64,000 nt of DNA. Source: Promethearchaeota archaeon (GTDB taxonomy: Archaea; Asgardarchaeota; Lokiarchaeia; Sigyniarchaeales; SOKP01). The notes below the pieces were generated by a model, which ran no database searches, had not been told where the DNA came from, and saw only the letters and a program-made list of their open reading frames with translations. A program made the position numbers and the translations under genes. This document shows positions 7,060 to 23,765 of the stretch, piece after piece (within the stretch, counting starts at the first letter, position 1; the number at the start of each line of letters is the position of its first letter). Where the stretch lies: positions 1-64,000 of the forward strand of contig JBHLOY010000005.1 in NCBI GenBank assembly GCA_048939995.1, read 5' to 3'.

Positions 7060-7164
7060 CGGGCTATGGGGGAATTTCAGAGCCATCCGAGATGGAAAAG
7101 CTTGTTCGAACCCCCGACCTTCAGGTTAAAAGCCTGCTGCGCTACCTGTCTGCGCTAATAGCCC
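7060..7164 (-). tRNA. tRNA-Lys(UUU) with 31-nt BHB intron at position 59/60 (7074-7104)
   Basis: Minus strand GGGCTAT TA GCGC..GCGC A GCAGG CT-TTT-AA CCTGA AGGTC GGGGG TTCGAA [intron] T CCCCC ATAGCCC G; central helix TTCG/TGAA, bulges AAC and ATT. Confidence 0.93.
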
Positions 7165-7284
7165 TAACAAAATCTTTTTTAAAGATAAATTATAAAATTT
7201 TAACTATAATTACAATTTTACAAATCTATAATAATATAAAATTTTTTCCGTGAAGTTTTTCCAAGGGATATCTACTTCTCCAAC

Positions 7285-20133: not shown

Positions 20134-20583
20134 TTGTTTATAATAATGAAAGAAGCAGGATTTGAATTTAAAGGACATACCGCGGATATAAAAGTGAGAA
20201 GTTGGGGTAGAACTTTAGAAGAAGCATTTGCACAAACTGCCTTGGGTTTAATGGCCATAATGAGTCCAGATTTAAAAAGGATCTCATCTACCATTCAAAA
20301 GAGTATTGAAATAACTTCAGAAGACATCTATGCTTTATTATTTGACTTTCTCTCTGAGTTTTTATATTTATTTGATGTAGACGGATTAATTTTTGGTGAT
20401 ATTATCGTTAATATAATGAAAAAAGAGCATAATGAATATTATTTACAAGCAATTATTAAAGGAGAGAAATTTGATCGCCACAAACATAAAATTGGGACTG
20501 AGGTTAAAGCAGTAACTTATTCATTTATGAATATAAAAGAAAAAAAAAATGAAGTTGAAATTGATATCATTTTTGATATCTAA
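20134..20583 (+). CDS. archease
   Basis: HTADI, G.TLEEAF, LLFDFLSEFL, EVKAVTY, terminal IFDI. Confidence 0.96.
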   Translation: MFIIMKEAGFEFKGHTADIKVRSWGRTLEEAFAQTALGLMAIMSPDLKRISSTIQKSIEITSEDIYALLFDFLSEFLYLFDVDGLIFGDIIVNIMKKEHNEYYLQAIIKGEKFDRHKHKIGTEVKAVTYSFMNIKEKKNEVEIDIIFDI

Positions 20584-20590
20584 ATGTGAA

Positions 20591-22063
20591 TTAGCCCTTT
20601 ACAACTCCTATTGGAACTAATCTTACTACTTTTTCAACAATATCTAAATCATGACTTACTTGAACAACTTGGTCAATGTCTTTATAGGCACCTGGAGCTT
20701 CTTCGGCAATAACTTTCATTGATGCGGCCTTAACTAAAATTCCTCGATTATAAAGATCTTCTCGTACAATGGAACCTCGGTATTTTGATATTGCTTTAGA
20801 TCTAGACATAACTCTTCCTGATCCATGAGCTGTGGACCCAAAAGAGAGTTCCATTGATTTAGGCTTTCCTACACATAGATATGATGCGCTTCCCATTGTG
20901 CCAGGAATCAATACTGGTTGTCCTAACTCTCTATAGTCTTGAGGAAGTACTGGATGTCCTGGTGGAAAAGCTCGAGTTGCACCCTTACGATGTACATTCA
21001 ATTTCACCTTTTTCCCATTTATTTCATGCTCTTCAATCTTTAGAATATTGTGACAAACTCCATATATTAAATGTAAATCTAAATCATTAAAACTCTTATT
21101 GAAATGTAGTTGGAACGCTTCTCGTAACCAATGAGTTATCAACTGACGATTAGCAAATCCAAAATTTGCGGCACAAGCCATTTGGCTAAGGTAATTTTGG
21201 GCTTCAGGAGTGTTTGCAGGAACGGAAGCTAATTCACGATCTGGAACCTTTATATTGTATTTCTTCATTGCCCGTTCTACATTACGTAATGAATCTGTGC
21301 ATACTTGATGCCCAAGAGCTCGAGATCCAGTATGGACCATGATCGTAATTTGATCCTTTTGGTGTATACCTAACTTTTTTGCTTTAGATTCATCAAAAAT
21401 TTCATCAACTTTCTGTATCTCAAGAAAATGATTACCACTCCCCAATGATCCAAGTTGTTTGAACCCTCTTTCCTTAGCTTTTTGAGAGACCAAGTTTGCA
21501 TTAGCATCTTTCAAACACCCCTTCTCTTCACAATGCTTAAGATCTTCTTCGATTGCATAGTTATTCTCTAATGTCCAATTCATTCCAGTATTTAACACAT
21601 TATCCAAATCTGAAAATTTAATATTTAGCTTCCCCTTAGAACCCAAACCCGACGGTATATTTTTGAAAATAGTATTTAATAAATGGGGTAAAGTGGTATT
21701 TATATCTTGAAGCATCAAATTTGTCCTTAATAACCTTACTCCACAATTAATATCATAACCAACACCCCCCGGTGATATCATCCCTGTTTCTGCATCTGTC
21801 CCAGCTACCCCTCCAATACAAAATCCATATCCTTGATGAGCATCTGAGAGTGCAATAACATGTTTTTCAACCCCGGTTAAACAAGCTACATTAGCAATTT
21901 GATCAAGAGTTCTATCCAATTTGATTTTCTCAAGAATGTATTCATTAGCATAAACATGCACTGGTACTTTCATTTGAAATTTCTCAATTCTTCCTTCCAC
22001 TCGAGCCATTAACGTTGTAGGTGGTATTTCGTATATATTGTCATCAATTTTATTCACATTCAT
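20591..22063 (-). CDS. rtcB: RNA-splicing ligase RtcB
   Basis: DAHQGYG, GYDINCG, GSGNHF, HNI, HRKGAT, AHGSGR, YKDI. Confidence 0.98.
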   Translation of the reverse strand: MNVNKIDDNIYEIPPTTLMARVEGRIEKFQMKVPVHVYANEYILEKIKLDRTLDQIANVACLTGVEKHVIALSDAHQGYGFCIGGVAGTDAETGMISPGGVGYDINCGVRLLRTNLMLQDINTTLPHLLNTIFKNIPSGLGSKGKLNIKFSDLDNVLNTGMNWTLENNYAIEEDLKHCEEKGCLKDANANLVSQKAKERGFKQLGSLGSGNHFLEIQKVDEIFDESKAKKLGIHQKDQITIMVHTGSRALGHQVCTDSLRNVERAMKKYNIKVPDRELASVPANTPEAQNYLSQMACAANFGFANRQLITHWLREAFQLHFNKSFNDLDLHLIYGVCHNILKIEEHEINGKKVKLNVHRKGATRAFPPGHPVLPQDYRELGQPVLIPGTMGSASYLCVGKPKSMELSFGSTAHGSGRVMSRSKAISKYRGSIVREDLYNRGILVKAASMKVIAEEAPGAYKDIDQVVQVSHDLDIVEKVVRLVPIGVVKG

Positions 22064-22202
22064 AATATATTAATAAGTAGATGGATTTTCATAAATTTTT
22101 TCATTTTAATTAGGAAGAAAACTAGCAAAAGGAGCTAAATTTATTAATATAGAACTATTATTAATCAGTATTTTAAAATTTTAATTAAATAGGAATAATA
22201 AA

Positions 22203-22958
22203 TTATTTTAGCTCGATAAATTTTAAAAGACCTAAATCATCTAAATCATCTATCATAACTTGAATCTCGCTTTCAGGTTTGCCACTTTCCTCAGCAATAT
22301 CGGAAATTGTATGAAAACCATCCGCTAAATGTGCTATTTTATACATTTCTTCATCCAAAAAACCTTGAGTTATTACCTGCGTTGGCAATCTTTTTGAAGT
22401 CCACTCGGGTTTCTGATTTTGAGATTGACGTAAATCTTCTTCAGAAATTATCAATCCTTTTTTCGTAATTTGCTTACGGGATTTAAGGAAATCCTTTTCA
22501 TAAATCTTTAAAATAGGTAACTTCATTTGAATTTCTGCTATCTTTCCATTCTGCAAAACTTCATCTATAATAGGCTCAAAATCTCTAAAAAGGCGAACAT
22601 CACCTCCCCAATTTTTAATAGTTTCGCCATGTACATTAATAAATTTATCAATAATATCGCTTAAGGCCTTATGAGTAATTTTAGCGTCGTCATTTTTATC
22701 AGCTGCAGCTGTACATAGTACACCCTCCTTAAAGACTAACAACAGATAAAAAATCTGCATATCTTTATTTATGAATAGATTCTATCCATAATCTATAATT
22801 TTGAGTTCCCCACTACCTTTTGAGAACTCAACACTAAAGTCTTTAAGGGCAGTTAAAAATCCCGAAACTAAATCTTGATTAAATTCAATACTTCCATATT
22901 TCCTATGAATTAAACAAATTCCCGTAAATTGGTCAATAAGGTAAAAATTGTGTAAAAT
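22203..22958 (-). CDS. longin-domain plus C-terminal winged-helix protein (about 241 aa after splicing); exon 1 22958-22793, exon 2 22762-22203; probable ATT start
   Basis: The frame of the 185-aa track ORF continues upstream as ILHNFYLIDQFTGICLIHRKYGSIEFNQDLVSGFLTALKDFSVEFSKGSGELKIID (longin-like), separated only by a 30-nt insert containing TAG. Confidence 0.85.
22763..22792 (-). other. putative 30-nt BHB-type intron in a protein-coding gene
   Basis: A-TTAT-AG^A-TTATGGATAG-AAT-CTATTCATAA-ATAA-AG^A-T: 4-bp helix, two AGA bulges, 10-bp inner stem; removal restores ATA GAT ATG. Confidence 0.82.
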
Positions 22959-23102
22959 AGCGTTTACTCAACTCCAGTTAAAAACATTATTAGTTGTATA
23001 TTAAATAAAATAATTCTAATATAAATTTCTTTATAACTTTAATCTTTATTCTTAAATCGCTTTTAATCATTTTTAAGTAAGAAATTAAATAAGATTTTAG
23101 TT

Positions 23103-23291
23103 CTAAATTTGGAAAGAATCATATATACTTTTAACATCAACAGCAAGCTCTTTACAAATCATATATAATGCATTACGTTTAGAGATTTCATTGAGTTCTT
23201 CTTTCTTTTTAACTACTAGGATCTCAATTTCTTTACGTGACAAACCCGTCTGCTTACTTATATTTTTAATATATTGATCTTTAAGTTCCAT
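23103..23291 (-). CDS. small protein resembling the DUF2240 C-terminal / archaeal RPA N-terminal helical domain
   Basis: ISKQTGLSRKEIE...KKEEL..IS..NALYMICKELAVDV pattern. Confidence 0.6.
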   Translation of the reverse strand: MELKDQYIKNISKQTGLSRKEIEILVVKKKEELNEISKRNALYMICKELAVDVKSIYDSFQI

Positions 23292-23351
23292 TATCCTTTT
23301 ATTTATCAGAATTTGTTTATTTAATCTAGAATAGTATACAAATGATACGTC

Positions 23352-23645
23352 TTATACAAAAGTATCTTTTAAAAGCCTTTTCAATTCATTTTTCTCTTTT
23401 AGAGATAGATATTTTAAATCTTTTCCTCTTTTTTCAAACCTGTCTAAAGGAAGATCTTCTATAAGGTTGAGTAATAGAATTAAACTATTCCTTACTAATA
23501 TAGTATCTTGAGTTGTATTTAAAAGGAACATGAGCTTTTTGAGTATCTTAGATATCCATAACATTTCATAACTATTATTTCGTGCCTTAGCATGCTCTCT
23601 AATGATCTTATTGTACCACCAGTCTTCATAATTACTATTCATCAA
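23352..23645 (-). CDS. hypothetical protein
   Basis: 97-aa ORF filling the gap between neighbours. Confidence 0.55.
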   Translation of the reverse strand: MMNSNYEDWWYNKIIREHAKARNNSYEMLWISKILKKLMFLLNTTQDTILVRNSLILLLNLIEDLPLDRFEKRGKDLKYLSLKEKNELKRLLKDTFV

Positions 23646-23765
23646 CTATTTTTTAAATTTAATTTATTATTTTACACTAATTTTTTGGATGTTCAAGATA
23701 TAATAAATCTTAAATCATTTGTAGATTAGTATTATACTAAAACGGAATTAAAGCAATTAATTAAA

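Follow-up and report, generated by a model that had tools for sequence, protein, structure and literature searches.

Why is a gene that stands directly beside rtcB and archease broken by a 30 nt insert with a stop codon, and does the insert owe anything to these neighbours? The question arises from the first 64 000 nt of contig JBHLOY010000005.1 (hereafter the window) of a Promethearchaeota archaeon of the class Lokiarchaeia (assembly GCA_048939995.1, the source genome), and concerns a gene for a longin/winged-helix protein, here called the longin gene. An earlier note on this DNA had described the gene as lying in the same orientation as rtcB at 139 nt, with archease converging on rtcB at 7 nt, all of which is correct, and had proposed that its splicing may form a regulatory circuit resembling that of XBP1. 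Comparison with relatives suggests a different answer, in which the insert is very likely a spliced intron of the bulge–helix–bulge (BHB) type that was probably spread by gene conversion linked to a nuclease. Coordinates of features are collected in Table 1; there, as in the text, G000 is the source genome, C-numbers are its contigs, other G-labels are genomes of relatives and L-labels are individual loci.

Left unspliced, the frame of the longin gene ends at a TAG after 58 codons, as the earlier note had seen; once nt 22763–22792 are removed it encodes 241 aa, the length of the intron-less orthologues, and cuts placed after base 2 of each bulge regain the orthologue sequence exactly. The inner stem of the source-genome intron has 10 bp and a 3 nt loop, with compensatory changes among variants, and the outer exon helix is a single base pair (A-U or G-C in 6/7 variants), as in the relaxed HBh′ type. 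A 4 bp central helix together with an inner stem of at least 8 bp occurred in 7 of 400 000 random 30 nt placements in the source genome. All seven intron variants have a central helix that is 100 % paired, six pairs are altered on both sides, and covariation reaches 0.451, compared with 0.24 when shuffled and no more than 0.16 in slid registers. The ratio of non-synonymous to synonymous substitution (dN/dS) is 0.025–0.07 on both exons, and 0.03–0.04 on exon 2 between intron-bearing alleles, which indicates that both exons are under purifying selection. Two EndA paralogues (PF01974, 208 aa) are encoded on other contigs of the source genome, and two-subunit EndA is of broad specificity (literature including PMC2738675). 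Structure, covariation, restoration of the frame, purifying selection and the presence of the enzymes together make it very likely that the insert is cut out by EndA and sealed by RtcB/archease; the dependence of protein output on splicing, as supposed by the earlier note, would therein hold. A transposon footprint (a 4 nt AGAT repeat) was also considered and was rejected, as the repeat is lost in other variants whereas the pairing is kept.

The intron is patchy, and the orthologous sequences place it at scattered points of the gene tree. Among the 32 same-genus orthologues read as sequence, a 29–30 nt insert is present at the identical site in five (G000, G010, G018, G026 and G003) and missing from 27. 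Inserts that bear a stop or shift the frame are present in 14 of the 101 full-length orthologues of the family, the other 87 having no insert; five of the 14 were read as sequence and nine, namely G065 and eight genomes of other genera, were recognized from length and stops. Intron bearers require five changes on the tree of the 3′ part of the gene and two on that of the 5′ part. No longin-gene orthologue was found at E≤1e-25 in four single-contig genomes of other families (G044, G045, G050 and G055), and the 80 loci returned by a metagenome scan were intron-less ones because the scan patterns span the intron junction. Relatives also carry a second BHB insert, after base 40 of the gene, at a site that is empty in the source genome. 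At L241 a 31 nt BHB insert (550–580) lies two bases downstream of the usual site, which may reflect either an independent gain or intron sliding. A homologue of just 44 % identity, L157, has the same 30 nt intron at the same site.

At least 10 genes of the source genome, the longin gene included, have BHB or BHB-like inserts. A homology census of the 1,033 open reading frames (ORFs), out of ~3,260, that are covered by a relative found seven disrupting BHB(-like) inserts, with three more verified by motif, and no BHB among 99 frame-preserving indels; extrapolation gives about 10–22 such inserts per genome. A genome-wide search for BHB motifs de novo, which used no homology, yielded 964 candidates, so dominated by operon junctions that the census was used instead. 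The inserts of purA and of EF-1alpha, the latter interrupting the P-loop, are also patchy across the genus. G008 has different inserts of its own at L100:18148, L060:5878 and L058:9786 (rps3, an alpha/beta hydrolase gene and probably elf1). A 21 nt in-frame, stop-free insertion at 1227–1247 of the window (plus strand; C19:1247), with a 4 bp helix and a 3 bp stem, is probably not an intron, its placement being ambiguous with 17 ties.

The alignments further indicate that the intron-bearing first ~180 nt of the longin gene, together with the promoter, has been swapped between lineages, with the signature of co-conversion. G018, which has two introns, and the intron-less G029 differ by 31 % in nt 1–180 and by 5 % beyond (p 1e-17), whereas in control pairs the 5′ part differs less than the 3′ part. 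The 5′ segments of sister alleles differ by 21–31 %, promoter included. The source genome is itself a mosaic: it is G019-like at 11 of 12 informative sites in nt 1–51, the start without intron 1, and G010-like at 19 of 23 in nt 108–225, around intron 2.

Directly upstream of the longin gene, G010, G018 and G065, all doubly interrupted, have an intact ORF of 760–850 aa that combines repeats with a C-terminal domain showing a PD-(D/E)xK-like pattern. In close relatives that have one intron or none, relics of this ORF remain or nothing at all, and in the source genome it is absent from the longin locus, with no relic detected. Intact or decayed, it is found in 14 of the 101 relatives, in 4/7 double-intron alleles versus 10/94 others (p 0.007; kin are not independent), and thus appears to track the proximal intron better than the distal intron of the source genome. 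That the ORF encodes a PD-(D/E)xK-like nuclease is a lead, suggested by the motif pattern and by sub-threshold Atlas leads (0.89; TM 0.36–0.51).

A similar association is seen elsewhere in the source genome, where three of three nuclease-like loci found adjoin intron genes, an arrangement with a rough chance of 1e-5. One is the sole free-standing member of the upstream-ORF family, which abuts the interrupted gene for acyl-CoA dehydrogenase; the other two, the only LAGLIDADG-like relic loci found, are next to the interrupted EF-1alpha and fwdA. These relics were found only via a G008 homologue; Pfam LAGLIDADG and HNH models gave no match in the source genome. G008, intron-less at these genes, is without the EF-1alpha-side and dehydrogenase-side loci. 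A nuclease-like ORF of G008 (L100:12965–14977) has inserted into an operon of ribosomal-protein genes, 3.2 kb away from the intron in rps3, and is absent in the source genome.

These observations are probably explained by a host-spliced, ORF-less BHB intron that is spread by nuclease-linked gene conversion, i.e. by collaborative homing. The pre-mRNA would fold into a 4 bp helix with two 3 nt bulges, each bulge would be cut by two-subunit EndA, and RtcB/archease would join the exons to give the 241 aa longin/winged-helix protein. Splicing would be routine housekeeping common to at least nine other mRNAs and, being so shared, would leave the intron near-neutral. Its spread and persistence would then take place at the DNA level, through gene conversion driven by the free-standing putative nuclease gene, a recurrent occupant of the slot just upstream. 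In intron-less alleles the nuclease would make its cut close to the gene start, and copying of its own gene would carry along the promoter and the initial ~180 nt; an intron within the copied segment may shield the target or ride along. In the source genome the nuclease and the proximal intron would have gone and the distal intron remained. Such a history, in which collaborative homing was followed by loss of a nuclease whose activity and target are read from sequence, seems fairly probable.

Several findings weigh against it. The outer exon helix has just 1 bp, and spliced RNA was not found, the two nearest database proteins coming from diverged intron-less alleles rather than being spliced copies. 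Over all alleles the upstream ORF occurs in 4/14 intron-bearing and 10/87 intron-less ones (p 0.10), and in none of the seven single-intron alleles, the type of the source genome. G005, G009, G064 and G023 have an intact upstream ORF and no intron, and G005 and G009 match their ORF-less kin at both sites. The ORF is without a match in Pfam, NCBIfam, PHROG or PDB, its nuclease-like domain also ends four large, non-mobile-looking proteins of the source genome, and 7 of the 10 source-genome intron genes have no nuclease-like neighbour now.

On such grounds a spliced BHB intron could have been gained and lost without any nuclease, by neutral RNA or DNA copying, recombination or cDNA replacement, with the ORF using an insertion-prone slot. 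The absence of the ORF from single-intron alleles and its weak overall co-occurrence with introns are what this course would give, and unrelated accessory genes do accumulate on both flanks of the longin gene. Loss by cDNA replacement has been proposed for the cbf5 intron (PMC2738675), and a study of Asgard tRNA introns offers no general arrival route (10.64898/2026.10.13.758758). Replacement by cDNA of the gene's own mRNA, however, would leave near-identical exons, whereas the 5′ segments of sisters are strongly diverged up to and including the promoter, and the position of all three nuclease-like loci of the source genome beside intron genes would be left to chance. A nuclease-free origin is consequently regarded as unlikely.

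Introns are also found in rtcB itself. In G001 and G016 it has a 29 nt frameshifting, perfect BHB intron at codon 103 (GVGY/DINC), corresponding to ~21756/21757 in the window, four codons before the catalytic Cys and beside the catalytic Asp/Cys; in G076 and G100 it is split at the identical place, as inferred from length and stops. With a BHB intron inside rtcB, the mRNA for the ligase depends on the ligase itself. G001 and G016 each yielded a single rtcB, and in both the longin gene is intron-less. The interrupted rtcB of G016 is directly preceded by an RtcB-type intein, displaced and bearing an HNH-like motif, and a free-standing ORF of this kind also lies directly upstream of rtcB in G005. 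Relics of RtcB-intein-like ORFs are seen upstream of rtcB in L202 and L236, and duplicated rtcB 5′ fragments at L219, L228 and L236. In a joint reading, Lokiarchaeia would routinely splice many mRNAs with the tRNA machinery, and free-standing homing nucleases would spread the micro-introns as passengers that shield their targets. The rtcB locus would be a hotspot of repeated invasion, having three or four intron sites in ~1.2 kb, one of them in rtcB, and may have been co-opted in some lineages, ligase capacity then gating the synthesis of RtcB and of a neighbouring NPRL2-like longin protein. This reading as a whole is rated rather improbable.

The proposal of the earlier note, that the intron is kept as a regulator and that longin/winged-helix output reports or controls RtcB/archease/EndA capacity, turns on the gene order. 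In the IRE1/XBP1 (HAC1) system, a short mRNA intron is cut by a non-spliceosomal nuclease and sealing by RtcB yields a longer protein (PMC12530127 for context). The longin gene is alike in that removal of a short mRNA intron by a non-spliceosomal nuclease and RtcB would give the longer protein. It differs in having a BHB instead of IRE1 stem-loops, no stress-activated nuclease, an intron that is not conserved in orthologues, a product that is not evidently a transcription factor, and a route shared by many housekeeping mRNAs. In favour of regulation, the longin gene stays beside rtcB and archease across four families and three relative orientations (co-oriented with rtcB in most of the source family, divergent in other families) and has acquired introns at two or three sites. 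An intron in the gene directly upstream of rtcB would be met by chance in only ~0.3–0.7 % of cases, or 2–5 % for any splicing-gene neighbour. However, the 87 of 101 orthologues (86 %) without an insert keep the synteny, which indicates that the adjacency is order-wide, older than the intron and unrelated to it. Of the two kinds of conservation on which the circuit would depend, that of the synteny is thus borne out and that of the intron fails, with 14 of 101 orthologues bearing it, scattered over the tree, so that it is no fixed switch. Nor is the intron linked to rtcB distance: 3/5 intron-bearing and 25/30 intron-less genomes have rtcB within 500 nt (p 0.26), and the doubly interrupted longin genes of G018 and G065 are 3.5–3.8 kb from rtcB.

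The transcription of rtcB likewise speaks against the circuit. Columns −33 to −23 upstream of rtcB are 92–100 % conserved across 26 loci, and no Shine–Dalgarno (SD) motif was found ahead of rtcB in these loci; the TATA-like element there is probably rtcB's own leaderless promoter, so that rtcB need not be co-transcribed with the longin gene. A T-run follows the longin-gene stop in 24/30 orthologues (a count without a null) and is absent in the source genome, where the lack of a long U-tract makes read-through into rtcB possible. The relaxed motif may also splice slowly, and a negative-regulator role has been proposed for the cbf5 intron (PMC2738675). Nevertheless, other mRNAs, some of them essential, need the same splicing, which must therefore be constitutive. 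No dedicated, signal-activated endonuclease with its own motif and no inducible IRE1-like nuclease is involved; the motif is the constitutive EndA type, a BHB common to at least nine housekeeping mRNAs. With an intron history that is scattered and recombined, an XBP1-like circuit is considered improbable: the adjacency predates the intron, rtcB has a TATA-like element of its own, and at least 10 genes share the splicing.

The predicted protein also fits such a circuit poorly. Its homologues are annotated as Promethearchaeota/Lokiarchaeia hypothetical proteins. In the structure model (predicted local distance difference test 78), the N-terminal longin domain scores Z 14.6 against Sec22b and VAMP7; among the matches of the C-terminal winged helix, SEA and GATOR1 subunits come second and third (Z 6.4–6.5; root-mean-square deviation 2.2–2.3 Å). 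With 4 K/R versus 14 D/E the winged helix is strongly acidic, which argues against DNA binding; given also SEA and GATOR1 among its best fold matches, it is doubtful that the protein serves as a DNA-binding output like XBP1. From the fold, a role in protein interaction near small GTPases may be inferred. The longin plus winged-helix architecture resembles that of NPRL2/Npr2 (GATOR1/SEA). The differences are a length of 241 aa, a single winged helix, middling Z, and the lack of a visible GP motif or arginine finger (compare PMC12290439). By eye, the orthologue alignment departs from GTPase-activating protein (GAP)-type longins (NPRL2/FLCN/SMCR8) in that the first loop is xTGI with no GP, and no conserved Arg stands at the position of the GAP-longin finger.

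That the insert stays unspliced, making the gene a pseudogene, a source of two peptides (58 aa, and 185 aa from Met57) or a case of TAG read-through, is very improbable: an in-frame exon 2 ATG does lie three bases past the junction, the outer helix is minimal and spliced RNA was not found, but the stops of the inserts vary (TAA, TAG, TGA) and variants of 29, 31, 34, 35 and 37 nt shift the frame, which with dN/dS <0.08 on both exons makes a pseudogene or read-through unlikely (stop recoding was rejected on the stops and frameshifts), Met57 is invariant in intron-less orthologues too and has no SD ahead of it, the split would part strand 3 of the longin sheet from strand 4, and the same kind of insert breaks the EF-1alpha P-loop.

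Among known systems, the closest for splicing is the cbf5 pre-mRNA intron of Desulfurococcales and Sulfolobales, a short ORF-less BHB intron with patchy gain and loss (Yokobori 2009, PMC2738675). Both interrupt a conserved coding stretch, often with a relaxed motif, alongside a two-subunit EndA and with patchy gain and loss. The present case belongs to another phylum and gene, is one of at least 10 introns per genome with splicing predicted, has two or three sites across relatives, and has a 5′ segment exchanged between lineages. cbf5 was named as the sole earlier mRNA example when the BHB in the 5′ untranslated region of Haloferax HVO_1309 was added (PMC7714728). HVO_1309 is likewise an mRNA serving as EndA substrate, with its motif outside the coding sequence. 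Among the papers searched, cbf5 was the only archaeal gene for which splicing of the EndA type within the coding sequence was reported. For spread, the comparison is with collaborative homing in phages, such as F-CphI with the psbA group I intron and T3/T7-like phages (PMC10448857). A free-standing nuclease-like neighbour, an ORF-less intron in a co-inherited segment, decayed relics and local gene conversion are common to both. Here, by contrast, a cellular chromosome carries a 30 nt host-spliced BHB intron instead of a self-splicing ribozyme, and the putative nuclease is of an unnamed family and absent from the source-genome locus. A 2026 preprint describes heavy tRNA interruption in Asgard archaea, leaves mRNAs untreated and the mode of arrival open (10.64898/2026.10.13.758758). 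The search, which left subscription papers largely uncovered, brought up no description of BHB introns within coding sequences of Asgard archaea, and these are apparently unpublished.

The start of the longin gene is non-canonical, with an SD-like motif that occurs at comparable spacing in most orthologues. The start is ATT, ATC, ATA or GTT in most orthologues and ATG in 7/80 metagenome loci; several further source-genome genes have ATA or ATT where G008 has ATG, and AUH initiation seems common within the genus. The ATT start was also considered as the site of a second intron, a reading that was rejected because non-AUG starts are the rule among orthologues and are found in other genes also. 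In the variable slot upstream, a 62 aa ORF (23103–23291, minus strand) has a weak DUF2240 match (E 9e-4).

Table 1. Positions of the longin gene, its intron and neighbours in the window, and of related features in the source genome and in relatives
Feature	Sequence	Position	Strand	Remarks
Interrupted longin/winged-helix gene	Window	22203-22958	minus	Co-oriented with rtcB, 139 nt gap
Exon 1, 166 nt	Window	22793..22958	minus	Alignment of 32 orthologues
Exon 2, 560 nt including stop	Window	22203..22762	minus	Remaining longin domain, linker, winged helix
BHB intron, 30 nt	Window	22763-22792	minus	Phase 1 in Asp56; in-frame TAG at 22782-22784
BHB motif	Window	22762..22798	minus	Central helix UUAU (22795-22798, exon) + AUAA (22765-22768, intron)
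BHB bulges AGA and AGA	Window	22792-22794; 22762-22764	minus	3 nt each, opposite strands
Empty site of second BHB intron	Window	22918..22919	minus	28-37 nt in G010, G018, G026, L240, L241
Start codon of longin gene, ATT	Window	22956-22958	minus	Non-canonical
SD-like motif UGGAGUUGA	Window	22968..22976	minus	9 nt ahead of ATT start
Variable region upstream of longin gene	Window	22959..23765		Two small ORFs in source genome
Conserved TATA-like element ATTTATGAAAA	Window	22086..22096	minus	-33..-23 of rtcB ATG
rtcB, 490 aa	Window	20591..22063	minus	Uninterrupted in source genome; PF01139, E 1e-167
archease	Window	20134..20583	plus	Convergent with rtcB, 7 nt gap; PF01951, E 1e-42
EF-1alpha insert	G000	C11:167345		Stop-bearing or frameshifting BHB(-like)
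purA insert	G000	C7:109926		Stop-bearing or frameshifting BHB(-like)
fwdA insert	G000	C17:377452		Stop-bearing or frameshifting BHB(-like)
Acyl-CoA dehydrogenase insert	G000	C17:23476		Stop-bearing or frameshifting BHB(-like)
dnaG insert	G000	C11:487250		Stop-bearing or frameshifting BHB(-like)
CaiB insert	G000	C38:64707		Stop-bearing or frameshifting BHB(-like)
PurM-like insert	G000	C23:175447		Stop-bearing or frameshifting BHB(-like)
metG (MetRS) insert	G000	C6:82172		BHB-like, imperfect inner stem
LMW-PTP/ArsC-like insert	G000	C17:37247		BHB-like, imperfect inner stem
Intact repeat-plus-nuclease-like gene	G000	C17:23989-25719		Tail to tail with interrupted acyl-CoA dehydrogenase gene
Broken LAGLIDADG-like genes	G000	C11:167553-169090		Beside EF-1alpha
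Broken LAGLIDADG-like genes	G000	C17:375409-375702 and 376542-376781		Beside fwdA
Large proteins ending in nuclease-like domain	G000	C6:26179-30630; C31; C38		C31 two ORFs (2373, 2438 aa); C38 one (1171 aa)
rtcB introns	G001; G016	L016 ~1063-1092 (G001); L140 ~7136-7165 (G016)		Also L202, L225, L226
Free-standing RtcB-intein-like ORFs	G016; G005	L140:7646-9790 (G016); L141:6283-7680 (G005)		NF052663, E 4e-16; HNH-like motif, C2H2 fingers

Introns of this kind break at least 10 genes, some of them essential, in one Asgard genome, and as a consequence gene callers truncate these genes. Tempting as an XBP1-like reading of the neighbourhood of rtcB is, coincidence arising from old synteny probably accounts for it. 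Splicing of mRNA appears to be routine in close relatives of eukaryotes, and the comparative data offer a concrete route by which such introns may arrive, namely nuclease-linked gene conversion.

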